A stretch of 15,003 nucleotides of DNA. Source: a virus (lineage: Duplodnaviria; Heunggongvirae; Uroviricota; Caudoviricetes). The stretch is from IMG/VR virus record IMGVR_UViG_2695420897_000031; one strand, written 5' to 3'. Below the pieces are notes generated by a model. It did no database searches, was not told the DNA's origin, and saw only the letters and a list, made by a program, of their open reading frames with translations. A program made the translations under genes and the position numbers. This document shows positions 1-15,003 of this stretch, piece after piece; the first letter of the stretch is position 1; every line of letters begins with the position of its first letter.

Positions 1-483
1 ATGACGAAGAAAAAAGCACATAAACCTGGTTCAGCGACCATCGCGCTTAACAAGCGCGCCCGTCACGAATACTTTATCGAAGAAGAGTTCGAAGCGGGAC
101 TTGCCCTGCAAGGCTGGGAGGTTAAATCCCTGCGCGCAGGAAAAGCCAATATCAGCGACAGCTACGTCCTTCTGCGTGACGGAGAGGCATTTCTGTTTGG
201 CGCTAACATCACGCCAATGGCCGTGGCCTCCACGCATGTGGTGTGCGATCCTACCCGTACCCGCAAGTTACTTCTCAACCAACGCGAACTGGACTCATTG
301 TACGGTCGCGTCAATCGAGAAGGCTATACCGTAGTGGCGCTCTCCCTGTACTGGAAAAATGCCTGGTGCAAAGTGAAAATCGGCGTCGCCAAAGGTAAAA
401 AACAGCACGATAAACGTTCAGATATCAAAGAACGCGAATGGCAGGTGGATAAAGCACGTATCATGAAAAACGCCCACCGTTAA
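1..483 (+). CDS. smpB: SsrA-binding protein SmpB (tmRNA partner in trans-translation)
   Basis: 160-aa ORF that I recognise along its full length as enterobacterial SmpB ([55 protein letters not shown]...KNAHR). It lies immediately upstream of ssrA, as in E. coli. Confidence 0.97.
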
Positions 484-649
484 ACCTGCACTCCAATTAT
501 TGACCAGTTCCTCACCGCGCCTCCCTCTCCGGCGGCGCGAATGAACATCTTATTGGCTATCACATCCGACACAAATGTTGCCATCCCATTGCTTAATCGA
601 ATAAAAATCAGGCTACATGGGTGCTAAATCTTTAACGATAACGCCATTG

Positions 650-690
650 AGGCTGGTCATGGCGCTCATAAATCTGGTATACTTACCTTT
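650..690 (+). promoter_or_regulatory. putative ssrA promoter region (-10-like TATACT at 678-683)
   Basis: TATACT hexamer sits 15-20 nt upstream of the mature tmRNA 5' end at 698, consistent with a short 5' leader on the precursor. I could not place a -35 element confidently. Confidence 0.35.
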
Positions 691-697
691 ACACATT

Positions 698-1060
698 GGG
701 GCTGATTCTGGATTCGACGGGATTTGCGAAACCCAAGGTGCATGCCGAGGGGCGGTTGGCCTCGTAAAAAGCCGCAAAAAATAGTCGCAAACGACGAAAA
801 CTACGCTTTAGCAGCTTAATAACCTGCTTAGAGCCCTCTCTCCCTAGCCTCCGCTCTTAGGACGGGGATCAAGAGAGGTCAAACCCAAAAGAGATCGCGT
901 GGAAGCCCTGCCTGGGGTTGAAGCGTTAAAACTTAATCAGGCTAGTTTGTTAGTGGCGTGTCCGTCCGCAGCTGGCAAGCGAATGTAAAGACTGACTAAG
1001 CATGTAGTACCGAGGATGTAGGAATTTCGGACGCGGGTTCAACTCCCGCCAGCTCCACCA
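698..1060 (+). ncRNA. ssrA: tmRNA (SsrA), 363 nt
   Basis: Starts GGGGCTGATTCTGGATTCGACGGG and ends with the tRNA-like GGTTCAACTCCCGCCAGCTCCACCA. The tag reading frame GCA AAC GAC GAA AAC TAC GCT TTA GCA GCT TAA (ANDENYALAA-stop) is at 787-819. Confidence 0.95.
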
Positions 1061-1188
1061 ATCATGATTGGACGGTGTAAGGACAACACCAACAAAAACA
1101 GGAAGTTAGCAGTCTCAGCAGGACACCGACCAGACGGTGAGGAGACAAAAAAGGATACGCAAAGGAGCCGCGGCTCTCAAGTGTGAAA

Positions 1189-1216
1189 GAAGCCCGCAAA
1201 TTGCGGGCTTTTTTAT
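1189..1216 (+). terminator. rho-independent terminator-like hairpin upstream of ORF1
   Basis: GC-rich inverted repeat AAGCCCGCAA / TTGCGGGCTT followed by TTTTTTATT. It lies about 130 nt downstream of the tmRNA CCA end. Confidence 0.55.
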
Positions 1217-1269
1217 TGATCAGTCAACAATAAACAGTAACCGAATGAGAATTTAATAAGGATATTCAT

Positions 1270-2301
1270 ATGGAAGCTACTGTGGATTCGATTGATTTTC
1301 TGATCCGTAGTGAAGATGATTTTCTAAACTTTCTGGAAGAAATGAAAGCCCGAGAGGGGCTTGATTCTAAAGAGTTTATTTTCCCTAACGTAAAGTTTGC
1401 AGGCTGGCCATCCTTAGACATAAATGTAAAAGGAGAGCGGTATCATTCATCAATTACATCAGCAATGTTGTTTGGTATGTCAATGCTCAACGAGGAGATA
1501 CAGCGGGCGTTTGCAACCATACGATACGGATCGCAGAATCTTCAACGCTTGACTAATGAAGACAAGCAACGACTTGATATAAATTTTAAAATTAGCGAAG
1601 GTTCTAGTGATGCGGAAGGCACCACTGACAAGATCATCAACGCAGTAACTGATTTTTTGCGAGATACTATGTCTGGACTGAACGGCTGGCAGAAAATGCT
1701 TGTTATAATCACAATGGTTGGCGCGGCCAGCACATGTGGTTATCACTACATTTCAGAAAATGCCGTAACAGAAAGACATGCAACTGATCGGCAGGTTGAA
1801 ATTGCAAAAACCACATCCGATGGCATAAACAAAGCCATAGAAGCAACATTAGATTATAAAATCTATGGGAAATCAGCGATTAGCGATAAAGTTACTAGTC
1901 ACGGACAAGCAGGTAAAAGTGCTTTAGTGAAGCAATTAGCTGCTGATCCTACTGTCGAAACCGTGACTTTAGGAAATGAGAAACTAACACGACAAGACCT
2001 AAATACCTACAACAGCCGACAATCTGTAGATAGAGAACGTAAAGAACGAACTGATATATTTTCCATCAAAGGTGTAACCAGAACAGGGCCAACAAATCAG
2101 GATATTAATATTAACGTTGTTAGGGTCTCTAATGACGAATGCTTCACAATCAAAGCTTCAGCTGATGTTATCACCCAAGATGAGTTGACAGCTATTGTTG
2201 ACGCTTTGTCAAACAACTCTCATATTAAAATCAGTTACTTAGAGGTAATTGAAAAGGGTGCTGTTTCTATAGGTCAGTTCAACACTATTGTTTCAGAATA
2301 A
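1270..2301 (+). CDS. hypothetical protein, 343 aa (ORF1); unknown function, with one hydrophobic stretch
   Basis: Long uninterrupted ORF with an AAGGA Shine-Dalgarno 7 nt upstream of the ATG. Markedly AT-rich compared with the flanking pin and baseplate genes (judged by eye). Hydrophobic stretch MLVIITMVGAASTCGYHY at residues 143-160 (nt 1696-1749). No family recognised, no canonical Walker A. Confidence 0.6.
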   Translation: MEATVDSIDFLIRSEDDFLNFLEEMKAREGLDSKEFIFPNVKFAGWPSLDINVKGERYHSSITSAMLFGMSMLNEEIQRAFATIRYGSQNLQRLTNEDKQRLDINFKISEGSSDAEGTTDKIINAVTDFLRDTMSGLNGWQKMLVIITMVGAASTCGYHYISENAVTERHATDRQVEIAKTTSDGINKAIEATLDYKIYGKSAISDKVTSHGQAGKSALVKQLAADPTVETVTLGNEKLTRQDLNTYNSRQSVDRERKERTDIFSIKGVTRTGPTNQDININVVRVSNDECFTIKASADVITQDELTAIVDALSNNSHIKISYLEVIEKGAVSIGQFNTIVSE

Positions 2302-2352
2302 TCACTTAACCCCATTTATGTCGGTTGAGGTTATAAGTCACGGAGACCAGAT

Positions 2353-2697
2353 ATGTCCTTAAAGTATGCACATGAAAAATTTCATACTGCAGTACTTACT
2401 CTTGCGGGCCATGGAAGTATTCAAGAACGCTTGATTAATTCGTATGTTTTTAGCCTTGGGCATCTTAAAACAGCCGATGATATTCCAAATGCCTTACAAA
2501 GCAGGTTCGATGAATTATGTAAGGAACTGACTAAGTTTGATGCCACTGGCGATGAGGGGCGAGTTCAAGCAACAGTATCAAAACTTAACGATTTCGAGAT
2601 CAATAAACTGATCGAAGATATTGTCAGTCTTAACGATGATATTTGCATGAAATTGGCTCTGACGGATGAGACTTACCAAGACATACACCAAAGTTAA
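2353..2697 (+). CDS. hypothetical acidic protein, 114 aa (ORF2); probably co-transcribed with ORF1
   Basis: ORF starts 52 nt after ORF1 on the same strand, with GGAG 6-9 nt upstream of the ATG. AT-rich and D/E-rich. No family recognised. Confidence 0.55.
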   Translation: MSLKYAHEKFHTAVLTLAGHGSIQERLINSYVFSLGHLKTADDIPNALQSRFDELCKELTKFDATGDEGRVQATVSKLNDFEINKLIEDIVSLNDDICMKLALTDETYQDIHQS

Positions 2698-2724
2698 TTG
2701 ATTAAATTCAAAAAGTTAACGTTC

Positions 2725-2747
2725 AACCAGCCAGTTTTTGGCTGGTT
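2725..2747. terminator. hairpin between convergent ORF2 (+) and ORF70 (-), possible bidirectional terminator
   Basis: Perfect 8-bp stem AACCAGCC / GGCTGGTT with a 7-nt T-rich loop, T-rich on both flanks, located between two convergent ORFs. Confidence 0.45.
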
Positions 2748-2781
2748 TATTGTCTTATAATATTCTTGCTCGAATGATGCA

Positions 2782-2994
2782 CTATTTATGATGTAATCCG
2801 GACATCAGTTCATGGACAAGATTATCTCTTTCATTGTGTTGCAACCGTAAATGCATAGCAAAAAGGTGAGCACTATCCTCATTCCTCTTCAAGCCATGCT
2901 GTTCAAGATACCCGAAAAAACGGCTTCTCTTATCCGCTATTTCCTGAGTCTGACGTGCAACATTTACCAAATTTTCTAGCGTTTTTCTTGGCAT
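2782..2994 (-). CDS. hypothetical small protein, 70 aa (ORF70), downstream of pin on the same strand
   Basis: ORF with a strong AGGAGG Shine-Dalgarno 7 nt upstream of the ATG (reverse complement of 2995-3010). No cysteines, no recognised family. Confidence 0.5.
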   Translation of the reverse strand: MPRKTLENLVNVARQTQEIADKRSRFFGYLEQHGLKRNEDSAHLFAMHLRLQHNERDNLVHELMSGLHHK

Positions 2995-3192
2995 ACTATT
3001 TCCTCCTGAAATTGTTGTAATTCACTAGGATATTCATTTTAATTTGTATCATTTAGTACCAAAACCGCTATCAATTAATAAAGCCATCGTTGTGGTTTAC
3101 CTTGCAGCCGTTTTTTGTCATTGACTCTATGTGAAAATAATGAATCATCATGAGATTGGCTCACACGTTCTTGAATTCGACGAGCTGTGTCT

Positions 3193-3747
3193 TTATTTAT
3201 CTCCTGCCGGAAACCTCTGATACAAAGTCGATACGCCAACATCATAGATAATCGCAACTTTCTGGCGCGGAACTCCTGATGCAATTAATCGTCCGGCTTG
3301 TGCCCATTGTTCTGGTGTAAGTTTGGGACGACGTCCACCAATTCGTCCCTGTGCGCGAGCAGCTTCCAGTCCAGCTTTTGTTCGTTCAACAATCAGTTCT
3401 CGTTCCATTTCAGCCAGGGCCCCCATCACATGAAAGAAAAAGCGCCCCATTGGGGTACTGGTATCAATTGAATCCGTCAGACTACGAAAGTTGATGCCTC
3501 GTTCGCGCAACTCCTCCACCAGCACGACAAGATGCCGCATACTGCGCCCCAGTCGGTCCAGTTTCCAGACCACCAGCGTATCGCCTGCCGATAATGTCCT
3601 GAGCAGTTTTTTCAGTCCCGGCCTTTCGGACTTTGTACCGCTTATCTTGTCTTCAAAAATCAGCTCGCATCCTGCACAGTTCAGCGCATTACGTTGTAGA
3701 TCTGTGTTCTGGTCATTTGTTGACACACGTACATAGCCAATAAGCAT
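3193..3747 (-). CDS. pin: serine DNA invertase, Pin/Gin/Cin/Hin family (184 aa)
   Basis: Starts MLIGYVRVSTNDQNTDLQRNALNCAGCE... and continues with VVWKLDRLGRSMRHL and GRFFFHVMGALAEMEREL, which I recognise as the small serine invertase family. Its 5' end abuts a cix-like site and a tail-fibre cassette. The six-frame ORF extends 12 codons upstream (to 3783) but the family start is the internal ATG at 3745-3747, which has a GGGAG RBS. Symbol pin is by analogy with the e14 arrangement, not from exact identity. Confidence 0.9.
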   Translation of the reverse strand: MLIGYVRVSTNDQNTDLQRNALNCAGCELIFEDKISGTKSERPGLKKLLRTLSAGDTLVVWKLDRLGRSMRHLVVLVEELRERGINFRSLTDSIDTSTPMGRFFFHVMGALAEMERELIVERTKAGLEAARAQGRIGGRRPKLTPEQWAQAGRLIASGVPRQKVAIIYDVGVSTLYQRFPAGDK

Positions 3748-3801
3748 GGTAGATCTCCCTGACAAAAGCAGGAATGATGCCATTTGCTCGTTATTTCTGC
3801 A

Positions 3802-3827
3802 TTTTCATAAACGTTGGTTTAAGAGCA
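3802..3827. other. cix-like recombination crossover site, pin-proximal (TTTTCATAAACG TT GGTTTAAGAGCA)
   Basis: 26-bp site with imperfect dyad symmetry around a central TT, resembling gix/cix/hix sites (AAACC-NN-GGTTT core). Sequence identity with the Sc-proximal site at 14085-14110 begins exactly at the central dinucleotide. Confidence 0.7.
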
Positions 3828-4124
3828 AGCGGGCAGTACACCGATAATTTGTTATTTACAGGTCCTGATGGTCTTAAGATTCAGGTGTTTCGCCGGACGC
3901 TCGCAAATTTGACTACTGTCGGTGTAGTAAATTCTGTGCCAGTGACTTTCCCTGTCCCGTTCCCTGTTAATTGCTGGGGCGTTTTTTCTACCAAATTAAC
4001 ATGGGTTCAGATAACTAACTCATGCGAGTGGGTAAGCAATACAGGATTTACCGCTCAGGTCATGATGAATATTGCTGTAAATACAAACACCTCAGACGCT
4101 ATGTTTTTAGCTATAGGATATTAA
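3816..4124 (+). other. tail-fibre variable C-terminal cassette SvA, promoterless copy facing pin (silent orientation)
   Basis: Identical to the C-terminal 103 codons of the tail-fibre CDS at 13808-14407, but here it has no constant N-terminal part. The six-frame ORF 3774..4124 is a read-through from the pin leader and not a real start. Confidence 0.65.
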
Positions 4125-4125
4125 T

Positions 4126-4566
4126 ATGAATCGTTTTGTGTTCAGTCCATCTGAGTCCCGTTTTTATGCCATCGAGTGGCAGGCTGATTATGTTGATAAT
4201 AATTGTTGGCCACATGATGCCATTAACGTTAGTGACAGTATTTATTATGAGTTTTCCGGCACTCCCCCTACAGGTAAGCAACTTATAACTTTAAATAACA
4301 TGCCAGCATGGGGTGATATTCCTCCACCTACACGAGAAGAATTAATTGTCGCTGCTGATGTGGAGAAGCAAAAAAGAATAGATTTAGCCAATGATTACAT
4401 GAACGGTAAGCAATGGCCTGGTAAAGCAGCTATTGGTCGTCTGAAAGGTGGGGAACTGGCACAATATAATTTGTGGCTGGATTATCTGGACGCACTGGAG
4501 CTGGTCGATACCGCCAGTGCGCCAGATATTGAATGGCCTACGCCTCCGGCAGTTCAGGCAAGATGA
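4126..4566 (+). CDS. tail fibre assembly protein (Tfa/Mu-U-like chaperone), variant A
   Basis: 146-aa ORF beginning 2 nt after the SvA stop. Sequence (MNRFVFSPSESRFYAIEWQADY...LWLDYLDALELVDTASAPDIEWP) is typical of the phage Tfa family that pairs with invertible fibre cassettes. Confidence 0.8.
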   Translation: MNRFVFSPSESRFYAIEWQADYVDNNCWPHDAINVSDSIYYEFSGTPPTGKQLITLNNMPAWGDIPPPTREELIVAADVEKQKRIDLANDYMNGKQWPGKAAIGRLKGGELAQYNLWLDYLDALELVDTASAPDIEWPTPPAVQAR

Positions 4567-4736
4567 CATCCGGCGCGGTGCTGGTATCTGTTGCCGTCAC
4601 CGCGTCAATGTAATCCAGCACAGTGTTAAGGCTGGTTGTTTCTGCCTGCGTCAGTTTACGTCCGGCCTGCAATTTCAGCTGAATCAGACTGATTGAAGCC
4701 ATTGCAGCATCAATCAGTGACTGGCGCTGTGCTTCA
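4538..4736 (-). pseudogene. 3' fragment of tail fibre assembly gene tfaB, cut at junction 4736|4737
   Basis: Reverse complement of the 3' end of the complete tfaB at 8924-9526. It differs from the other copies at one base (4708 C versus T, Thr to Ala in the tfaB frame). It ends abruptly where smpB-derived sequence resumes. Confidence 0.6.
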
Positions 4737-5091
4737 CCTGCGCGCAGGAAAAGCCAATATCAGCGACAGCTACGTCCTTCTGCGTGACGGAGAGGCATTT
4801 CTGTTTGGCGCTAACATCACGCCAATGGCCGTGGCCTCCACGCATGTGGTGTGCGATCCTACCCGTACCCGCAAGTTACTTCTCAACCAACGCGAACTGG
4901 ACTCATTGTACGGTCGCGTCAATCGAGAAGGCTATACCGTAGTGGCGCTCTCCCTGTACTGGAAAAATGCCTGGTGCAAAGTGAAAATCGGCGTCGCCAA
5001 AGGTAAAAAACAGCACGATAAACGTTCAGATATCAAAGAACGCGAATGGCAGGTGGATAAAGCACGTATCATGAAAAACGCCCACCGTTAA
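4737..5091 (+). pseudogene. smpB: smpB 3' fragment (lacks the first 128 nt)
   Basis: Identical to smpB 129-483. The six-frame ORF 4693..5091 is an artefactual fusion of tfaB antisense sequence to the smpB frame. Confidence 0.7.
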
Positions 5092-5305
5092 ACCTGCACT
5101 CCAATTATTGACCAGTTCCTCACCGCGCCTCCCTCTCCGGCGGCGCGAATGAACATCTTATTGGCTATCACATCCGACACAAATGTTGCCATCCCATTGC
5201 TTAATCGAATAAAAATCAGGCTACATGGGTGCTAAATCTTTAACGATAACGCCATTGAGGCTGGTCATGGCGCTCATAAATCTGGTATACTTACCTTTAC
5301 ACATT

Positions 5306-5668
5306 GGGGCTGATTCTGGATTCGACGGGATTTGCGAAACCCAAGGTGCATGCCGAGGGGCGGTTGGCCTCGTAAAAAGCCGCAAAAAATAGTCGCAAAC
5401 GACGAAAACTACGCTTTAGCAGCTTAATAACCTGCTTAGAGCCCTCTCTCCCTAGCCTCCGCTCTTAGGACGGGGATCAAGAGAGGTCAAACCCAAAAGA
5501 GATCGCGTGGAAGCCCTGCCTGGGGTTGAAGCGTTAAAACTTAATCAGGCTAGTTTGTTAGTGGCGTGTCCGTCCGCAGCTGGCAAGCGAATGTAAAGAC
5601 TGACTAAGCATGTAGTACCGAGGATGTAGGAATTTCGGACGCGGGTTCAACTCCCGCCAGCTCCACCA
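5306..5668 (+). ncRNA. ssrA: tmRNA (SsrA), second copy
   Basis: Identical to 698-1060 (offset +4608). Confidence 0.9.
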
Positions 5669-5877
5669 ATCATGATTGGACGGTGTAAGGACAACACCAA
5701 CAAAAACAGGAAGTTAGCAGTCTCAGCAGGACACCGACCAGACGGTGAGGAGACAAAAAAGGATACGCAAAGGAGCCGCGGCTCTCAAGTGTGAAAGAAG
5801 CCCGCAAATTGCGGGCTTTTTTATTGATCAGTCAACAATAAACAGTAACCGAATGAGAATTTAATAAGGATATTCAT

Positions 5878-6909
5878 ATGGAAGCTACTGTGGATTCGAT
5901 TGATTTTCTGATCCGTAGTGAAGATGATTTTCTAAACTTTCTGGAAGAAATGAAAGCCCGAGAGGGGCTTGATTCTAAAGAGTTTATTTTCCCTAACGTA
6001 AAGTTTGCAGGCTGGCCATCCTTAGACATAAATGTAAAAGGAGAGCGGTATCATTCATCAATTACATCAGCAATGTTGTTTGGTATGTCAATGCTCAACG
6101 AGGAGATACAGCGGGCGTTTGCAACCATACGATACGGATCGCAGAATCTTCAACGCTTGACTAATGAAGACAAGCAACGACTTGATATAAATTTTAAAAT
6201 TAGCGAAGGTTCTAGTGATGCGGAAGGCACCACTGACAAGATCATCAACGCAGTAACTGATTTTTTGCGAGATACTATGTCTGGACTGAACGGCTGGCAG
6301 AAAATGCTTGTTATAATCACAATGGTTGGCGCGGCCAGCACATGTGGTTATCACTACATTTCAGAAAATGCCGTAACAGAAAGACATGCAACTGATCGGC
6401 AGGTTGAAATTGCAAAAACCACATCCGATGGCATAAACAAAGCCATAGAAGCAACATTAGATTATAAAATCTATGGGAAATCAGCGATTAGCGATAAAGT
6501 TACTAGTCACGGACAAGCAGGTAAAAGTGCTTTAGTGAAGCAATTAGCTGCTGATCCTACTGTCGAAACCGTGACTTTAGGAAATGAGAAACTAACACGA
6601 CAAGACCTAAATACCTACAACAGCCGACAATCTGTAGATAGAGAACGTAAAGAACGAACTGATATATTTTCCATCAAAGGTGTAACCAGAACAGGGCCAA
6701 CAAATCAGGATATTAATATTAACGTTGTTAGGGTCTCTAATGACGAATGCTTCACAATCAAAGCTTCAGCTGATGTTATCACCCAAGATGAGTTGACAGC
6801 TATTGTTGACGCTTTGTCAAACAACTCTCATATTAAAATCAGTTACTTAGAGGTAATTGAAAAGGGTGCTGTTTCTATAGGTCAGTTCAACACTATTGTT
6901 TCAGAATAA
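5878..6909 (+). CDS. hypothetical protein, 343 aa (ORF1, second copy)
   Basis: Identical translation to 1270-2301. Confidence 0.6.
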   Translation: MEATVDSIDFLIRSEDDFLNFLEEMKAREGLDSKEFIFPNVKFAGWPSLDINVKGERYHSSITSAMLFGMSMLNEEIQRAFATIRYGSQNLQRLTNEDKQRLDINFKISEGSSDAEGTTDKIINAVTDFLRDTMSGLNGWQKMLVIITMVGAASTCGYHYISENAVTERHATDRQVEIAKTTSDGINKAIEATLDYKIYGKSAISDKVTSHGQAGKSALVKQLAADPTVETVTLGNEKLTRQDLNTYNSRQSVDRERKERTDIFSIKGVTRTGPTNQDININVVRVSNDECFTIKASADVITQDELTAIVDALSNNSHIKISYLEVIEKGAVSIGQFNTIVSE

Positions 6910-6960
6910 TCACTTAACCCCATTTATGTCGGTTGAGGTTATAAGTCACGGAGACCAGAT

Positions 6961-7305
6961 ATGTCCTTAAAGTATGCACATGAAAAATTTCATACTGCAG
7001 TACTTACTCTTGCGGGCCATGGAAGTATTCAAGAACGCTTGATTAATTCGTATGTTTTTAGCCTTGGGCATCTTAAAACAGCCGATGATATTCCAAATGC
7101 CTTACAAAGCAGGTTCGATGAATTATGTAAGGAACTGACTAAGTTTGATGCCACTGGCGATGAGGGGCGAGTTCAAGCAACAGTATCAAAACTTAACGAT
7201 TTCGAGATCAATAAACTGATCGAAGATATTGTCAGTCTTAACGATGATATTTGCATGAAATTGGCTCTGACGGATGAGACTTACCAAGACATACACCAAA
7301 GTTAA
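6961..7305 (+). CDS. hypothetical acidic protein, 114 aa (ORF2, second copy)
   Basis: Identical translation to 2353-2697. Confidence 0.55.
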   Translation: MSLKYAHEKFHTAVLTLAGHGSIQERLINSYVFSLGHLKTADDIPNALQSRFDELCKELTKFDATGDEGRVQATVSKLNDFEINKLIEDIVSLNDDICMKLALTDETYQDIHQS

Positions 7306-7389
7306 TTGATTAAATTCAAAAAGTTAACGTTCAACCAGCCAGTTTTTGGCTGGTTTATTGTCTTATAATATTCTTGCTCGAATGATGCA

Positions 7390-7602
7390 CTATTTATGAT
7401 GTAATCCGGACATCAGTTCATGGACAAGATTATCTCTTTCATTGTGTTGCAACCGTAAATGCATAGCAAAAAGGTGAGCACTATCCTCATTCCTCTTCAA
7501 GCCATGCTGTTCAAGATACCCGAAAAAACGGCTTCTCTTATCCGCTATTTCCTGAGTCTGACGTGCAACATTTACCAAATTTTCTAGCGTTTTTCTTGGC
7601 AT
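7390..7602 (-). CDS. hypothetical small protein, 70 aa (ORF70, second copy)
   Basis: Identical translation to 2782-2994. Confidence 0.5.
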   Translation of the reverse strand: MPRKTLENLVNVARQTQEIADKRSRFFGYLEQHGLKRNEDSAHLFAMHLRLQHNERDNLVHELMSGLHHK

Positions 7603-7800
7603 ACTATTTCCTCCTGAAATTGTTGTAATTCACTAGGATATTCATTTTAATTTGTATCATTTAGTACCAAAACCGCTATCAATTAATAAAGCCATCGTTG
7701 TGGTTTACCTTGCAGCCGTTTTTTGTCATTGACTCTATGTGAAAATAATGAATCATCATGAGATTGGCTCACACGTTCTTGAATTCGACGAGCTGTGTCT

Positions 7801-8355
7801 TTATTTATCTCCTGCCGGAAACCTCTGATACAAAGTCGATACGCCAACATCATAGATAATCGCAACTTTCTGGCGCGGAACTCCTGATGCAATTAATCGT
7901 CCGGCTTGTGCCCATTGTTCTGGTGTAAGTTTGGGACGACGTCCACCAATTCGTCCCTGTGCGCGAGCAGCTTCCAGTCCAGCTTTTGTTCGTTCAACAA
8001 TCAGTTCTCGTTCCATTTCAGCCAGGGCCCCCATCACATGAAAGAAAAAGCGCCCCATTGGGGTACTGGTATCAATTGAATCCGTCAGACTACGAAAGTT
8101 GATGCCTCGTTCGCGCAACTCCTCCACCAGCACGACAAGATGCCGCATACTGCGCCCCAGTCGGTCCAGTTTCCAGACCACCAGCGTATCGCCTGCCGAT
8201 AATGTCCTGAGCAGTTTTTTCAGTCCCGGCCTTTCGGACTTTGTACCGCTTATCTTGTCTTCAAAAATCAGCTCGCATCCTGCACAGTTCAGCGCATTAC
8301 GTTGTAGATCTGTGTTCTGGTCATTTGTTGACACACGTACATAGCCAATAAGCAT
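7801..8355 (-). CDS. pin: serine DNA invertase, Pin/Gin/Cin/Hin family (second copy)
   Basis: Identical to 3193-3747 (offset +4608). Confidence 0.9.
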   Translation of the reverse strand: MLIGYVRVSTNDQNTDLQRNALNCAGCELIFEDKISGTKSERPGLKKLLRTLSAGDTLVVWKLDRLGRSMRHLVVLVEELRERGINFRSLTDSIDTSTPMGRFFFHVMGALAEMERELIVERTKAGLEAARAQGRIGGRRPKLTPEQWAQAGRLIASGVPRQKVAIIYDVGVSTLYQRFPAGDK

Positions 8356-8409
8356 GGTAGATCTCCCTGACAAAAGCAGGAATGATGCCATTTGCTCGTT
8401 ATTTCTGCA

Positions 8410-8435
8410 TTTTCATAAACGTTGGTTTGGGAGAA
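8410..8435. other. cix-like crossover site, pin-proximal, second copy (TTTTCATAAACG TT GGTTTGGGAGAA)
   Basis: Left half and central TT are the same as at 3802-3815. The right half belongs to the SvB cassette instead of SvA. Confidence 0.7.
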
Positions 8436-8924
8436 GGCTCTGCATTACCTGTTGGTGTGCCTGTTCCGTGGCCTTCCGCCACTCCGCCGACAGGCTGGCT
8501 GAAATGCAACGGTGCCGCTTTTTCTGCTGAAGAATACCCGGAACTGGCAAAGGCTTATCCGACAAATAAATTGCCTGATTTACGTGGTGAGTTTATTCGT
8601 GGCTGGGATGACGGGCGTGGTATTGATGCTGTACGTGCCTTGCTAAGTCTTCAGAATGGAGGAGTGGAATCACACACCCACCAAGGGCAGCTCTTCAGAG
8701 TTAGTGATTATCGTACAAAAGAAATACCAGCATCAGAAGTTATGGGAAGAGGATATATTGCAAGCCTGACGCCGGGTGCTGATAGCCCACTTGATTTTGA
8801 TGATTATTATGTATCTTCTAATCCAAATGGATATTTTGTCGGGAATCAGAGAACAACAGCATATGGGATAAATGAAACCCGTCCACGGAATATTGCATTT
8901 AACTATATCGTGAGGGCTGCATAA
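8424..8924 (+). other. tail-fibre variable C-terminal cassette SvB (silent orientation, facing away from pin)
   Basis: Encodes ...LKCNGAAFSAEEYPELAKAYPTNKLPDLRGEFIRGWDDGRGID...ETRPRNIAFNYIVRAA, which resembles the receptor-binding C-terminal domain common to enterobacterial phage side tail fibres. The frame is continuous with the crossover site, so inversion would fuse it to the constant N-terminus. Confidence 0.7.
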
Positions 8925-9526
8925 TGGATAACGCTGTATTAAATAGCGAGTTTATTGCTACAAAGGCGGGGAATATTACCGTCTATAACTATGATGGCGA
9001 AACACGGGAATATATTTCCACATCAACTGAATATCTTGCCGTTGGTGTCGGTATCCCTGCATATTCCTGTTTAGATGCCCCTGGCACATACAAAGCTGGT
9101 TATGCAATCTGCCGATCTGTAGATTTTAACTCATGGGAATATGTGCCAGACCATCGCGGTGAAATCGTCTTTAGCACCGAAACAGGAGAATCAAAAGAAA
9201 TCACAGCTCCGGGTGATTACCCTGATAATACAACCACTATCGCCCCGTTAACGCCATACGATAAATGGGATGGTGAGAAATGGGTGACGGATACCGAAGC
9301 ACAGCATAGCGCCGCAGTAGATGCAGCAGAAGCACAGCGCCAGTCACTGATTGATACTGCAATGGCTTCAATCAGTCTGATTCAGCTGAAATTGCAGGCC
9401 GGACGTAAACTGACGCAGGCAGAAACAACCAGCCTTAACACTGTGCTGGATTACATTGACGCGGTGACGGCAACAGATACCAGCACCGCGCCGGATGTCA
9501 TCTTGCCTGAACTGCCGGAGGCGTAG
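8924..9526 (+). CDS. tail fibre assembly protein (Tfa family), variant B
   Basis: 200-aa ORF whose ATG overlaps the SvB stop by 1 nt. Its C-terminal region (...LDYIDAVTATDTSTAPDVILPELP) parallels the C-terminus of tfaA. Confidence 0.75.
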   Translation: MDNAVLNSEFIATKAGNITVYNYDGETREYISTSTEYLAVGVGIPAYSCLDAPGTYKAGYAICRSVDFNSWEYVPDHRGEIVFSTETGESKEITAPGDYPDNTTTIAPLTPYDKWDGEKWVTDTEAQHSAAVDAAEAQRQSLIDTAMASISLIQLKLQAGRKLTQAETTSLNTVLDYIDAVTATDTSTAPDVILPELPEA

Positions 9527-9938
9527 GCCATTCAATATCTGGCGCACTGGCGGTATCGACCAGCTCCAGTGCGTCCAGATAATCCAGCCACAAATTATAT
9601 TGTGCCAGTTCCCCACCTTTCAGACGACCAATAGCTGCTTTACCAGGCCATTGCTTACCGTTCATGTAATCATTGGCTAAATCTATTCTTTTTTGCTTCT
9701 CCACATCAGCAGCGACAATTAATTCTTCTCGTGTAGGTGGAGGAATATCACCCCATGCTGGCATGTTATTTAAAGTTATAAGTTGCTTACCTGTAGGGGG
9801 AGTGCCGGAAAACTCATAATAAATACTGTCACTAACGTTAATGGCATCATGTGGCCAACAATTATTATCAACATAATCAGCCTGCCACTCGATGGCATAA
9901 AAACGGGACTCAGATGGACTGAACACAAAACGATTCAT
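9498..9938 (-). CDS. tail fibre assembly protein, variant A (inverted copy)
   Basis: Identical translation to 4126-4566. Its 3' end overlaps tfaB by 29 bp in convergent orientation. Confidence 0.8.
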   Translation of the reverse strand: MNRFVFSPSESRFYAIEWQADYVDNNCWPHDAINVSDSIYYEFSGTPPTGKQLITLNNMPAWGDIPPPTREELIVAADVEKQKRIDLANDYMNGKQWPGKAAIGRLKGGELAQYNLWLDYLDALELVDTASAPDIEWPTPPAVQAR

Positions 9939-9939
9939 A

Positions 9940-10248
9940 TTAATATCCTATAGCTAAAAACATAGCGTCTGAGGTGTTTGTATTTACAGCAATATTCATC
10001 ATGACCTGAGCGGTAAATCCTGTATTGCTTACCCACTCGCATGAGTTAGTTATCTGAACCCATGTTAATTTGGTAGAAAAAACGCCCCAGCAATTAACAG
10101 GGAACGGGACAGGGAAAGTCACTGGCACAGAATTTACTACACCGACAGTAGTCAAATTTGCGAGCGTCCGGCGAAACACCTGAATCTTAAGACCATCAGG
10201 ACCTGTAAATAACAAATTATCGGTGTACTGCCCGCTTGCTCTTAAACC
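9940..10248 (-). other. tail-fibre variable cassette SvA (inverted copy), ending at a cix half-site
   Basis: Reverse complement of 3816-4124. Here it is not preceded by the constant fibre N-terminus; it meets gp44-like sequence instead. Confidence 0.65.
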
Positions 10249-10250
10249 AA
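10237..10250. other. cix half-site plus central AA, ending exactly at the non-canonical junction 10250|10251
   Basis: TGCTCTTAAACC AA matches the reverse complement of the cix right half and centre. The expected partner half (GGTTTTCGAGA, as at 14085-14096 in reverse) is replaced by ATGGCCGGGAGA. Confidence 0.6.
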
Positions 10251-10251
10251 A

Positions 10252-11211
10252 TGGCCGGGAGATGAGGGTATCACCACGCTTCAGCCGCGCATTAAAAACG
10301 GTTCAAAAGTGGAAGTGCTGATTGGTGATGAGCTGGTGATCACCGGCTGGGTGGAGGCGACTCCCGTTCGTTACGATGCCCGTTCGGTCAGCACCGGTAT
10401 TGCCGGACGTAGTCTGACGGCTGACCTGATTGACTGTGCAGCCGAACCGACACAGTTTAACGGACGCTCGCTGGTGCAGATTGCGCAGGCGCTTGCTGCG
10501 CCTTTCGGCATTGAGGTGGTGAACAGCGGTGCGCCATCGGGTGTTATTCCTGATGTTCAGCCTGATCACGGTGAAACGGTGATTGAGGTAATCAACAAAA
10601 TACTCGGTCAGCAGCAGGCGCTGGCTTACGACGACCCGCACGGTAGGCTGGTGATTGGTGGTATTGGCTCAACGCGGGCACATACCGCGCTGGTACTTGG
10701 GGAAAACATCCTTTCCTGTGATACGGAGAAGAGTATCCGGGAGCGGTTTTCTGTTTACCAGGTGGCGGGGCAGCGTGCCGGAAACGACGATGATTTCGGT
10801 GAGGCCACCACCACCGCGCTGCGGGCCCGCACAGAGGACGCATTTATTGCCCGTTACCGTCCGATGTATATCAGGCAGACAGGGCAGGCTACGGGGGCAG
10901 GCTGTATTGCCCGTGCGGACTTTGAAGCCCGACAACGGGCGGCGCGGACGGATGAAACCACCTATGTGGTGCAGGGCTGGCGACAGGGTAACGGTACGCT
11001 GTGGCAGCCCAACCAGCGGGTGATTGTCTTCGATCCGGTCTGTGGTTTCGACAATACCGAACTGCTTGTCTCGGAAGTCACGTTTACTCAGGACCAGAAC
11101 GGCACCCTGACGGAAATCCGTGTCGGCCCGCCTGATGCTTATCTGCCTGAACCCGAAGCTCCCGGCGCGCGGAAAAAGAAAAAAGCCAGAGTACAGGAGG
11201 ACCCGTTCTGA
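10252..11211 (+). pseudogene. 5'-truncated Mu gp44 (P) / P2 gpD-like baseplate or tail protein
   Basis: Reading frame is open from the junction (WPGDEGITTLQPRIKNGSKVEVLIGDE...) with no start codon or RBS in a sensible position. Family assignment rests on gene order, size and GC-rich phage-like composition. The stop overlaps the next start (TGATG). Confidence 0.5.
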
Positions 11212-11759
11212 TGAGGACGATTGAAGCCATGCAGCGACAACTTCTCGGCCTGATTGGGCGGGCAGTGGTGAAAAGCATCAGTGCCGCCACGAAATGCCAG
11301 ACCGTGGATGTGTCCCTGATTGCCGGTGAACCCAAAGCCGGGGTTGAACATCTTGAACCCTACGGTTTTACCGCAAGGGCAAACAGCGGTGCGGAAGCGG
11401 TGGTGTTGTTTCCGGATGGCGACCGTTCTCATGCGGTGGTTGTTACGGTGTCGGACCGGCGCTACCGCCTGAAAGGGCTGCAGACGGGTGAGGTGGCTGT
11501 CTATGACGATCAGGGGCAGTCCGTGACGCTGACCCGGGAGGGGATCGTGGTGGACGGTGCAGGTAAAACGATCACGTTTCGCAATTCACCTAAAGCACGT
11601 TTTGAAATGGACCTGGAAGTGACCGGACAGGTGAAAGACCTGTGCGACTCCGGCGGCACCACCATGTCAGCGATGCGGCTTGCCTATAACGGGCATCGTC
11701 ACAGAGAGAACGGTCAGGGCAGTAACACCGACAAACCTGATAAAGCGATGGAGGCATGA
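11211..11759 (+). CDS. baseplate assembly protein V / Mu gp45-like spike (182 aa)
   Basis: Contains ...PYGFTARANSGAEAVVLFPDGDRSHAVVVTVSDRRYRLKGLQTGEVAVYDDQGQSVTL... and a DSGGTT motif, which I recognise as the Mu gp45 / P2 gpV family. Translationally coupled to neighbours. Confidence 0.7.
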   Translation: MRTIEAMQRQLLGLIGRAVVKSISAATKCQTVDVSLIAGEPKAGVEHLEPYGFTARANSGAEAVVLFPDGDRSHAVVVTVSDRRYRLKGLQTGEVAVYDDQGQSVTLTREGIVVDGAGKTITFRNSPKARFEMDLEVTGQVKDLCDSGGTTMSAMRLAYNGHRHRENGQGSNTDKPDKAMEA

Positions 11760-12184
11760 TGGAACTGTGGCTGACGGTGAGCGGTAAACGCACCTGCGCC
11801 AGCGCACCGCTGGATCCGCTGACCCGCGCCGTGGTGATTTCCCTGTTTACCTGGCGGCGGGCGGAGCCTGATGACAACGCCGACGTCCCGATGGGATGGT
11901 GGGGGGATACCTGGCCTGCGGTACAGAATGACCGTTACGGCTCCCGACTGTGGCTGCTTCAGCGCAGCAAACTGACCAATCAGCTGGTGCAGACGGTAAG
12001 GGGGTATATCCGCGAATGCCTGCAATGGATGATTGATGACGGCGTGGTGTCCCGTATTGATCTGGATATCCGCCGTACCGGGATTAATGAACTGGGTAAC
12101 AGTATCACTCTCTGGCGTCGTGACGGACCGGTAATGATTTCTTTTGATGATCTGTGGAGTGCGATAACGCATGGCGGACAGTGA
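11756..12184 (+). CDS. Mu gp46-like baseplate protein (142 aa)
   Basis: Small ORF overlapping its neighbours by 4 and 14 nt, in the position of gp46 in Mu-like tail modules. Confidence 0.5.
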   Translation: MMELWLTVSGKRTCASAPLDPLTRAVVISLFTWRRAEPDDNADVPMGWWGDTWPAVQNDRYGSRLWLLQRSKLTNQLVQTVRGYIRECLQWMIDDGVVSRIDLDIRRTGINELGNSITLWRRDGPVMISFDDLWSAITHGGQ

Positions 12185-13229
12185 ATTTCAGCGCCCGACG
12201 CTGGCAGAAAATATCAGTATGCTCCGTAACGATTTATTCGCCAGGCTGGACGTCAGCAACACGCTCCGGCGCATGGATGAAGACGTGCGGGCAAAGGTGT
12301 ATGCGGCGGCGCTGCATACGGTCTACGGGTACATCGATTATCTGGCAATGAATATGCTGCCTGACCTGTGCGATGAGTCCTGGCTGGCGCGACATGCTGC
12401 GATGAAACGGTGTCCGCGCAAGGGGGCCACGGCTGCCAGCGGGTATATGCGCTGGGAAGGTGTCAGCGATGGCCTGAAGGTGACTGCCGGGAGCGTGATT
12501 CAGCGCGATGACCTGGTTCAGTACACGGCAACTGCCGATGCAACCAGCTCCGGTGGTGTCCTGCGTGTGCCGATCACTTGCTCAACTACAGGCGCGGTCG
12601 GTAACGCTGACGACGGTACGGCATTAATCCTGGTCACGCCGGTGAATGGTCTGCCGTCTTCCGGTGTTGCAGATACCCTGACTGGCGGATTCGATACTGA
12701 AGATCTGGAAACGTGGCGCGCCCGCGTCATTGAGCGGTATTACTGGACGCCGCAGGGCGGGGCTGACGGGGACTATGTCGTCTGGGCTAAAGAAGTGCCC
12801 GGCATTACCCGCGCATGGACATACCGTCACTGGATGGGAACGGGAACTGTCGGTGTGATGATTGCCAGCAGTGACCTGATTAATCCCATTCCGGAAGAAT
12901 CAACGGAAACGGCGGCAAGACAACATATCGGGCCACTGGCCCCGGTGGCAGGCTCTGATTTGTATGTATTCAGGCCGGTGGCACATAAAGTGGATTTTCA
13001 TATCCGCGTGACGCCGGATACACCGGAAATACGGGCTGCCATCACCGCGGAGTTGCGTTCGTTCCTGCTGCGTGATGGTTATCCGCAGGGAGAACTGAAG
13101 GTGTCGCGTATCAGTGAGGCGATTTCCGGTGCGAACGGGGAATACAGCCATCAGTTGCTTGCACCGGCAGACAATATCTCCATTGCAAAAAATGAACTGG
13201 CGGTTCTGGGGACGATTTCATGGACGTGA
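12171..13229 (+). CDS. baseplate J-like protein (Mu gp47 / P2 gpJ family, 352 aa)
   Basis: Size, position between gp46-like and gp48-like genes, and overall sequence character are consistent with baseplate J. Confidence 0.6.
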
Positions 13230-13804
13230 CAAACGATGATTACATCCGTCTGTTGTCTGCACTGTTGCCCCCCGGTCCGGCGTGGTCAGCCAGCGATCCG
13301 GCGATTGCCGGTTCGGCACCGTCATTAACCCGCGTTCATCAGCGTGCGGATGCCCTGATGCGGGAGCTGGATCCGCGCACCACCACCGAACTGATAAACC
13401 GCTGGGAGCGTCTGTGCGGCCTGCCGGATGAATGTATTCCCGCAGGGACACAGACCCTTCGCCAGCGTCAGCAACGACTGGATGCGAAGGTTAACCTGGC
13501 GGGCGGCATCAATGAGGATTTTTACCTTGCACAGCTTGCTGCCCTGGGCAGACCAGACGCTACCATCACGCGATACGACAAAAGCACGTTCACCTGCTCA
13601 TCAGCCTGCACTGACGCTGTGAATGCGCCGGAATGGCGGTATTACTGGCAGGTCAACATGCCAGCCGCCACCAACACCACCTGGATGACATGTGGCGATC
13701 CCTGTGATTCCGCACTGCGTATCTGGGGCGACACCGTTGTCGAGTGTGTGCTTAACAAACTCTGCCCGTCGCATACCTACGTAATTTTTAAATATCCGGA
13801 GTAA
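13220..13804 (+). CDS. Mu gp48-like tail protein (P2 gpI-like, 194 aa)
   Basis: Position immediately upstream of the tail-fibre gene, overlapping the baseplate J-like gene by 10 nt. Confidence 0.5.
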
Positions 13805-13807
13805 TTC

Positions 13808-14407
13808 ATGCATCGTATAGACACGAAAACCGCGCAGAAGGATAAGTTCGGCGCGGGTAAGAACGGTTTTACCCGTGGTAACCCCCAGACCGGCACACCT
13901 GCCACCGATCTGGATGATGACTACTTTGACATGTTGCAGGAGGAGCTTTGCAGCGTTGTGGAGGCCTCCGGTGCCAGCCTGGAGAAAGGGCGGCACGACC
14001 AGTTGCTTACCGCGCTTCGTGCGCTGCTGTTAAGCCGCAAAAATCCGTTTGGCGATATCAAATCGGACGGCACGGTGAAAACGGCTCTCGAAAACCTTGG
14101 TTTAAGAGCAAGCGGGCAGTACACCGATAATTTGTTATTTACAGGTCCTGATGGTCTTAAGATTCAGGTGTTTCGCCGGACGCTCGCAAATTTGACTACT
14201 GTCGGTGTAGTAAATTCTGTGCCAGTGACTTTCCCTGTCCCGTTCCCTGTTAATTGCTGGGGCGTTTTTTCTACCAAATTAACATGGGTTCAGATAACTA
14301 ACTCATGCGAGTGGGTAAGCAATACAGGATTTACCGCTCAGGTCATGATGAATATTGCTGTAAATACAAACACCTCAGACGCTATGTTTTTAGCTATAGG
14401 ATATTAA
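13808..14407 (+). CDS. short side tail fibre protein: constant N-terminus (Sc) fused to variable cassette SvA (199 aa)
   Basis: N-terminus [75 protein letters not shown] is a widely conserved enterobacterial prophage tail-fibre N-terminus. The cix site at 14085-14110 lies inside the CDS at the Sc/Sv boundary, as in Mu S and e14 fibres. Confidence 0.8.
14085..14110. other. cix-like crossover site, Sc-proximal (TCTCGAAAACC TT GGTTTAAGAGCA), inside the tail-fibre CDS
   Basis: Same right half and central TT as 3802-3827, with a different left half. Both halves contain the AAACC/GGTTT core. Confidence 0.7.
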
Positions 14408-14408
14408 T

Positions 14409-14849
14409 ATGAATCGTTTTGTGTTCAGTCCATCTGAGTCCCGTTTTTATGCCATCGAGTGGCAGGCTGATTATGTTGATAATAATTGTTGGCCACATGA
14501 TGCCATTAACGTTAGTGACAGTATTTATTATGAGTTTTCCGGCACTCCCCCTACAGGTAAGCAACTTATAACTTTAAATAACATGCCAGCATGGGGTGAT
14601 ATTCCTCCACCTACACGAGAAGAATTAATTGTCGCTGCTGATGTGGAGAAGCAAAAAAGAATAGATTTAGCCAATGATTACATGAACGGTAAGCAATGGC
14701 CTGGTAAAGCAGCTATTGGTCGTCTGAAAGGTGGGGAACTGGCACAATATAATTTGTGGCTGGATTATCTGGACGCACTGGAGCTGGTCGATACCGCCAG
14801 TGCGCCAGATATTGAATGGCCTACGCCTCCGGCAGTTCAGGCAAGATGA
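14409..14849 (+). CDS. tail fibre assembly protein, variant A (expressed orientation, downstream of Sc-SvA)
   Basis: Identical translation to 4126-4566. Confidence 0.8.
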   Translation: MNRFVFSPSESRFYAIEWQADYVDNNCWPHDAINVSDSIYYEFSGTPPTGKQLITLNNMPAWGDIPPPTREELIVAADVEKQKRIDLANDYMNGKQWPGKAAIGRLKGGELAQYNLWLDYLDALELVDTASAPDIEWPTPPAVQAR

Positions 14850-15003
14850 CATCCGGCGCGGTGCTGGTATCTGTTGCCGTCACCGCGTCAATGTAATCCA
14901 GCACAGTGTTAAGGCTGGTTGTTTCTGCCTGCGTCAGTTTACGTCCGGCCTGCAATTTCAGCTGAATCAGACTGATTGAAGCCATTGCAGTATCAATCAG
15001 TGA
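14821..15003 (-). CDS. tail fibre assembly protein variant B, 3' portion (runs off the window end)
   Basis: Reverse complement of the 3' end of tfaB (8924-9526). Carries T at the position where the copy at 4708 has C. Confidence 0.6.
   Translation of the reverse strand, partial: SLIDTAMASISLIQLKLQAGRKLTQAETTSLNTVLDYIDAVTATDTSTAPDVILPELPEA

Follow-up and report, generated by a model that had tools for sequence, protein, structure and literature searches.

A gp44 baseplate gene that seems cut at a Pin crossover site most probably reflects a scaffolding join in a draft Escherichia coli assembly

How does the gene for a phage baseplate protein come to begin, to the base, at the crossover centre of a site-specific invertase? 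This question is raised by the window, i.e., the whole stretch of 15,003 nt that was analysed, in which a gp44-like gene directly follows one half of a cix site of a Pin inversion system. The window corresponds to positions 24301-39303 of CYAN01000050.1 (GCA_001285125.1, a draft assembly of E. coli; locus L011) and represents the final 15,003 nt of this 39,303-nt record, up to the record end. The locus was retrieved via the exact 300-aa product of the gp44 ORF that starts with GTG, and its gene order is the same as in the window.

The truncated gp44 gene and the block structure of the window

In the initial annotation it was stated that the gp44-like frame runs open from the junction without a start codon, and the letters confirm this description. 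The gene is present from position 10252 onward, which corresponds to codon 41 (W41, WPGDEG...). In this frame a TAA is located at 10243-10245, and a start codon is first encountered with the GTG at 10309. The N-terminal GpP domain of Pfam is covered only at positions 42-85 of 85. An intact gp44 homologue has 359 aa (1,080 nt, 5883-6962 in locus L001), and in comparison 40 codons are absent from the gene in the window. On the plus strand, the junction reads ...CTTGCTCTTAAACC-AA, followed by (A)TGGCCGGGAGATG... The identity of the preceding Sv1/tfa sequence to its copies at 3814-4741 and 14092-15003 stops at 10250, the last base of the central AA dinucleotide of the crossover site.

A self-comparison revealed that the window is assembled from a few re-used blocks in the order A-B-A-C-B'-D-B. 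Block A (129-3820) begins within smpB and includes the 3' part of this gene, ssrA, three ORFs of low GC content, and, on the minus strand, the gene for a serine invertase; a 100% identical copy is found at 4737-8428. Block B, of about 0.92 kb, comprises a cix half-site, the tail-fibre C-terminus Sv1, and the gene for a tail-fibre assembly protein of 146 aa; it occurs three times (3814-4741, plus strand; 9323-10250, minus strand; 14092-15003, plus strand). Block C (8428-9323) encodes a second tail-fibre C-terminus, Sv2, which has a collar domain, and the larger part of a further assembly protein. Block D (10252-14098) harbors the partial gp44 gene, gp45, gp46, gp47, gp48/ymfQ, and the constant part of the tail-fibre gene. 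The features of the window are:

1-483, plus strand: smpB, the intact chromosomal copy (Pfam SmpB, E=1.5e-57; annotated as smpB in colinear complete genomes)
698-1060, plus strand: ssrA (tmRNA), the genuine copy, which adjoins the prophage end (ARAGORN, tag ANDENYALAA)
3193-3747 (mechanical ORF to 3783), minus strand: pinE-type serine DNA invertase, 184 aa according to RefSeq (Pfam Resolvase and HTH_7; pinE is found at the colinear place in loci L002 and L013)
3802-3827: genuine 26-bp cix site, pin flank/Sv1, TTTTCATAAACG-TT-GGTTTAAGAGCA, with the segment in the second orientation
4736: single-N scaffold gap of the record, shown as A in the window, at which the tfa region is joined to nt 129 of smpB
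4737-8423, plus strand: artefactual second copy of smpB (from nt 129), ssrA, cargo and pinE, 100% identical to 129-3815 and present as a single copy in complete genomes
8410-8435: genuine cix site, pin flank/Sv2, TTTTCATAAACG-TT-GGTTTGGGAGAA
8424-10248: complete invertible P segment (Pfam Collar, Caudo_TAP twice, and Gp53-like_C; gene order as in L001, L002 and L013), with Sv2 including the collar domain to 8924 (plus), tfa2 at 8924-9526 (plus), tfa1 at 9498-9938 (minus) and Sv1 at 9940-10248 (minus)
10237-10250: half a cix site, CTCTTAAACC and the central AA, the end of assembly piece 2
10251: single-N scaffold gap of the record, shown as A in the window, identical to the reported junction, at which the cix half-site is joined to codon 41 of gp44
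10252-11211, plus strand: incomplete gp44/GpP-like baseplate hub gene, nt 121 (codon 41) to the stop codon (Pfam)
11211-11759, 11756-12184, 12171-13229 and 13220-13804, plus strand: gp45, gp46, gp47/J and gp48/YmfQ, respectively (Pfam for L011, RefSeq for L001 and L013)
13808 to 14098, plus strand: constant part of the tail-fibre gene (Pfam for L011, RefSeq for L001 and L013)
14085-14110: genuine cix site within the tail-fibre gene, Sc/Sv1, CTCTCGAAAACC-TT-GGTTTAAGAGCA
14099-15003, plus strand: third copy of Sv1-tfa1, to the end of the public record

The genuine Pin inversion system

The genuine locus is an ordinary and well-known e14-type Pin switch of tail fibres, situated on a tail module of the Mu/SfV type that adjoins ssrA, and in many complete genomes all of these parts have been annotated already. 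It shares its components with the Pin/P-region system of e14, a member of the Din family together with Gin-G of Mu, Cin-C of P1, and Hin of Salmonella. The pinE invertase of 184 aa contains the Resolvase and HTH_7 domains of Din-family recombinases (3193-3783, minus strand; Pfam Resolvase 1.8e-51, HTH_7 4e-13). The crossover sites are 26-bp sequences with an AAACC-NN-GGTTT dyad and a central TT/AA, they are found at 3802-3827, 8410-8435, and 14085-14110, and they fit the consensus published in Table 3 of PMC4134206. As in e14, a segment of 1.8 kb encodes two alternative C-termini of the tail fibre together with their cognate assembly proteins, namely Sv2 (Collar) with tfa2 and Sv1 (Gp53-like_C) with tfa1, in mirror arrangement at 8424-10248, and a constant 5' part of the tail-fibre gene is preceded by ymfQ/gp48. 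In contrast to the e14 remnant at icd, the prophage described here has a complete baseplate module of the Mu/SfV type and adjoins ssrA. The gp44 junction is no part of an e14 Pin-type system.

The record contains the pin/Sv1 join (3802-3827) as well as the pin/Sv2 join (8410-8435). For the presence of both orientations in one record there are two explanations, ongoing inversion of the segment within the sequenced culture or a second copy.

The interval between ssrA and pinE contains three ORFs of low GC content (about 38%), which encode products of 343 aa (1270-2301, plus strand), 114 aa (2353-2697, plus strand), and 70 aa (2782-2994, minus strand). They have been kept at the same place in about 20 complete genomes. 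No match was found for any of these cargo ORFs in Pfam, NCBIfam, or PADLOC, and their products are annotated as hypothetical in RefSeq.

The source record and the case for recombination

The initial annotation had taken the sequence to be continuous across the join, which is contradicted by the source record. A base-by-base comparison of the window with L011 yielded only two differences, positions 4736 and 10251, at each of which the record has an N where the window shows an A. The letters around the two Ns in L011, read directly, are 'aaccaantggccggg' and 'gtgcttcncctgcgcg', and the record at the reported junction is ...TCTTAAACCAA-N-TGGCCGGG... Consequently, the third A of 'CCAAATGG' (10251) stands in for an unknown base or a gap, and the N in the record shows that no sequence across the join was available to the assembler. 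At the other position, the homology to complete genomes ends at 4735, and the A at 4736 matches neither parent sequence. The two Ns are located precisely at the two points at which the colinearity with natural sequence is lost, and thus both joins are single-N scaffold gaps, neither of which has been sequenced across. From this position at both colinearity breaks and from general knowledge about SSPACE and GapFiller we infer that a single N stands for an unclosed or zero-length gap. For the As at 10249-10251 and the one at 4736, an origin as untemplated or microhomology bases of an illegitimate recombination had also been considered, and this idea was dropped, because 4736 and 10251 are Ns.

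The main idea of the initial annotation was a historical event at a pseudo-site in gp44. A crossover between a quasi-site in gp44 and the cix site of the Sc/Sv1 boundary would have been catalysed by Pin or by a related invertase acting in trans, the baseplate block would have been inverted or duplicated, the prophage would be defective, and the N would be a single uncalled base. Several features of the join are in agreement with such an event. Its left side ends exactly after the central AA of the cix half-site, intact gp44 has CC-AA-TGG at this place and thus offers the matching AA dinucleotide, and the orientation, reverse-complement Sv1 next to forward gp44, is the one expected on one side of an inversion between cix and gp44. 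In addition, recombination at quasi-sites (cixQ) has been described for Cin, with a crossover at the 2-bp centre of a real and a degenerate site that share the central dinucleotide (Iida and Hiestand-Nauer, 1986, 1987, as cited in PMC4134206), and its dependence on that dinucleotide has been documented (Iida and Hiestand-Nauer, 1987, as cited in PMC4134206). This is the mechanism that the initial annotation invoked, and it is valid in general; at this join, however, it fails for each feature that was tested.

One such feature is the target sequence. Intact gp44 reads AGATCACTCGCC-AA-TGGCCGGGAGAT at the homologous place, the AA is the sole resemblance to cix, and the partial dyad of a quasi-site is absent. 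A position weight matrix was derived from the window's four genuine half-sites, and three registers of the centre were tried. The two genuine cix sites of the intact locus L001 reached +27.6 and +27.8 bits, and no other position in the 12.2 kb scored above +8.7 bits. In contrast, the place in gp44 scored -2.7 bits with AA as the centre (half-sites -1.9 and -0.7), and the neighbouring registers scored -22.9 and -17.1 bits. Only three of the ten core positions of AAACC..GGTTT match there, a level that is reached at 46% of all positions. Hence, with the weight matrix and in all three registers, no cix-like site was found at the break in intact gp44, and the absence of such a sequence from intact relatives is one of the two findings, next to missing read support for the junction, that the initial annotation itself had named as refuting its proposal.

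The junction does not have the form of a recombination product either. A sequenced hybrid junction is lacking, since the junction base is an N, and the spacing is one position too long: a precise crossover at the AA would give AAACCAATGGCC, in contrast to the AAACCAA-N-TGGCC of the record. No reciprocal junction was found in the sequence examined. The far end of block D retains the natural order Sc-cix-Sv1 (14085-14110), which excludes a simple inversion and would make an extra copy of the segment necessary. More generally, none of the three routes that were considered, namely circle formation by Pin, unequal sister exchange leading to a tandem duplication, and simple inversion, yields the order A-B-A-C-B'-D-B without extra copies. 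In these respects, i.e., the N in place of a sequenced junction, the absence of a degenerate dyad at the target and of a reciprocal product, and the spacing, the join differs from the cixQ events of Cin.

Independent occurrences of the junction were not found either. A 401-nt probe centred on the join matched 1,104 of 5,426 complete E. coli genomes, and in none of them did a match span the join; each match was restricted to positions 1-201 or 201-401 of the query. A junction pattern with zero to two free bases, chosen so that the precise Pin-type product AAACCAATGGCC would match as well, was absent from genome_contigs (species-representative genomes), metagenome_contigs, and viral_contigs. Last but not least, the sister join at 4736 has the same form as the join at 10251, yet it contains no cix-like sequence. 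It is located 5.5 kb upstream and creates an implausible tandem arrangement of smpB'-ssrA-pinE. Taken together, the N at the join, the missing cix-like site, the absence of the join from 5,426 genomes and three collections, and the sister N-join speak against a historical Pin event at gp44, which we regard as extremely improbable.

A variant of this proposal is that the link made by the scaffolder reflects real read pairs that stem from a minority of the cells, in which Pin used the very poor gp44 site (CC-AA-TGG) and flipped the baseplate block of 3.8 kb, so that the base at the junction could not be called. If this were true, it would represent the natural use, by a Din invertase, of a target with essentially no half-site similarity. 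The probability of this variant seems to be close to negligible.

A real rearrangement could also have occurred in the isolate without site specificity; illegitimate recombination or template switching at the inverted Sv1 copies, for instance, could have produced an inverted duplication, again with one ambiguous base. The three Sv1-tfa1 copies in alternating orientation could in principle result from fold-back replication errors, and a single base difference at 4708 (C versus T) hints at templates that were not identical. However, both abnormal joins carry an N, and the direct repeats of 3.7 kb and the inverted repeats of 0.9 kb are otherwise 100% identical, as expected when the same reads are re-used. 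The base difference is 28 nt away from the end of an assembly piece, where the extension is likely to have run into a paralogous tfa gene, and neither the tandem duplication of smpB'-ssrA nor the inverted baseplate block was present in any of the 5,426 complete genomes. Such a rearrangement is therefore very unlikely.

Assembly of the record and recurrent trouble in gp44

The join between 10250 and 10252 can be explained best as a scaffolding join of two assembly pieces of a short-read draft, with no sequence read across it, and we assign a probability of about 0.95 to this explanation. It is based on the Ns, the colinearity tests, and the absence of a pseudo-site. The reported junction is not a real feature, and it is not a recombination event. 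The initial annotation had offered an assembly graph that breaks at the boundary of the inversion repeat as its second choice, and it is this suggestion that is borne out by the N at the join and the colinearity tests.

The colinearity tests made use of complete genomes. Those that contain block A with 99.7-99.9% identity have the order smpB-ssrA-cargo-pinE(-)-[P segment], followed by the tail-fibre gene, ymfQ, gp47, gp46, gp45, and an intact gp44 gene of 1,080 nt, all on the minus strand. When block D was aligned with L013 (18551-14700), the alignment started exactly at 10252, and the orientation of the block was the reverse of the natural one. In addition, a reconstruction of 2,748 nt was made from positions 8300-10250 of the window and the reverse complement of 13300-14096, which were overlapped on the common Sv1 block. 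Its content is the pin 5' end-cix-Sv2-tfa2-tfa1'-Sv1'-cix-Sc'-ymfQ'. It was found as one colinear piece in five complete genomes, with 100% coverage and 98.2-98.3% identity, and in a sixth with 96% coverage and 99.3% identity. Therefore, undoing the scaffold join alone restores the natural arrangement.

These results suggest the following course of events. The natural locus is a prophage of the SfV/Mu-tail type adjoining ssrA, with the order smpB-ssrA-cargo-pinE(-)-cix-[Sv2 tfa2 tfa1' Sv1']-cix-(tail fibre Sc, ymfQ/gp48, gp47, gp46, gp45, gp44, all minus). The Pin segment would have been present in two contexts among the reads, due to inversion in the culture or to related copies, and the assembler could not have extended beyond the crossover centre and would have halted at ...AAACCAA. 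The record indeed contains two continuations of Sv1, AAACCAA followed by GGTTTTCGAG toward Sc and AAACCAA followed by CGTTTATGAA toward pin, with G as the next base in one context and C in the other, and position 10250 is the last base that is common to both. Because the flanks change at the crossover point, an extension that proceeds only while it is unambiguous must halt at that base. The initial annotation had stressed that the break coincides to the base with the position of Pin cleavage. This coincidence is real, as the identity ends after the central AA, but a halt at the crossover centre is mechanically expected from the assembly, and thus the match carries no evidence for catalysis.

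The piece reaching from codon 41 of gp44 to Sc-cix-Sv1 would then have been placed, wrongly oriented, behind piece 2 and separated from it by one N, and gp44 is incomplete because this piece starts at 10252. Its placement by a scaffolder would need some read-pair links. The second single-N join, at 4736, generated a false tandem copy of 4,608 nt, comprising smpB'-ssrA-pinE-Sv1. With ARAGORN two identical tmRNA genes were found 4,608 nt apart, the second one at 5306-5668, and both this pair and the copy of smpB with a cut 5' end follow from the false duplication. In the window both Ns are written as A, so that the joins look continuous.

Comparable artefacts have been described. Joins made by SSPACE leave N gaps, and SSPACE as well as GapFiller work greedily and may produce false joins (PMC5320598). 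GapFiller extends contig edges, and the gaps that it does not close are repeats whose alternatives have equal support (PMC3446322). The genome paper of EC958 reported that invertible tail-fibre segments lead to alternative contigs, and that artefactual duplications arise if these are merged (PMC4134206). The two N-joins, the false tandem copy of 4.6 kb, and the flipped baseplate block resemble the EC958 case (PMC4134206) and the artefacts of greedy scaffolding (PMC5320598, PMC3446322). One difference is that EC958 was assembled from PacBio data and its alternative contigs were kept apart, whereas in the present record they were linked into one sequence by single Ns. A literature search did not reveal which assembler or scaffolder was used for GCA_001285125.1, and the attribution of the joins to particular software is an inferred one.

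The pieces measured from the cix centre have lengths of 3,687 and 3,847 nt leftward and 920 and 905 nt rightward. It is tempting to speculate that these oddly regular lengths are in line with pieces that grew through a set number of rounds of extension. A further observation concerns position 4708, located 28 nt from the N at 4736, which is a C in the first Sv1/tfa copy and a T at the equivalent positions 9356 and 14991. This is the sole base difference between the first copy and the other two, and it is probably due to an extension that drifted into a paralogous tail-fibre assembly gene, or to a second, non-identical genomic copy.

The 300-aa product of the truncated gp44 gene is shared by the loci L003-L012, and a common breakpoint hot spot was considered. 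It was rejected, because the lesions differ. Two loci (L006 and L012) have a TAG nonsense codon at W41 of gp44, L007 has a poly-G run in the gene, and L008 a run of 13 Ns. L009 has a frameshifting deletion of 91 nt, which was mediated by the 12-nt repeat copies AATGGCCGGGAG (L009 9942-9953). L003 (GCA_900481245.1, UDEA01000003.1) contains another single-N false tandem duplication within the same prophage module, at 9884, in which ...gp44-gp45 is followed by the N and by gp44 from nt 62 onward. The remaining lesions are a fold-back in L005 (about 9959-9970), a join to the middle of a tyrosine integrase gene in L004 (about 9958), which was absent from all complete genomes searched, and a join to an unrelated gene in L010 (about 9961).

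Independent assemblies break or are misjoined within about 30 nt of one spot, at nt ~119-150 of gp44, where the gp44 piece of the window starts as well; the joins in L004, L005, and L010 correspond to 6017-6020 of L001, and the 13-N run of L008 and the poly-G run of L007 also belong to this cluster. This region looks like a trouble spot for sequencing or assembly, or is possibly a branch point between prophage copies. Within gp44, the direct repeat AATGGCCGGGAG of 12 nt is present at 5910-5921 and 6001-6012 of L001 (gp44 nt 28 and 119), and the gp44 piece of the window begins 2 nt into its second copy. The base directly 5' of codon 41 is an A in some prophage copies and a G in others, and the start of the piece at this codon could represent a branch point between two prophage copies in one genome. 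The TGG-to-TAG nonsense mutation at W41 in several prophages (L006, L012) affects the same codon with which the piece of the window starts. It follows from these nonsense copies that truly defective copies of the gp44 baseplate gene do circulate.

In the scanned window the Ns of the draft record had been rewritten as A, and thereby two scaffold gaps became seemingly continuous junctions that are biologically suggestive. Scans for recombination scars should therefore begin with a check of the source record for Ns. Invertible tail-fibre segments of phages are a systematic source of such joins. The base at which the assembler is forced to halt is the same base at which a recombinase cuts, and thus the artefact mimics site-specific recombination to the nucleotide.
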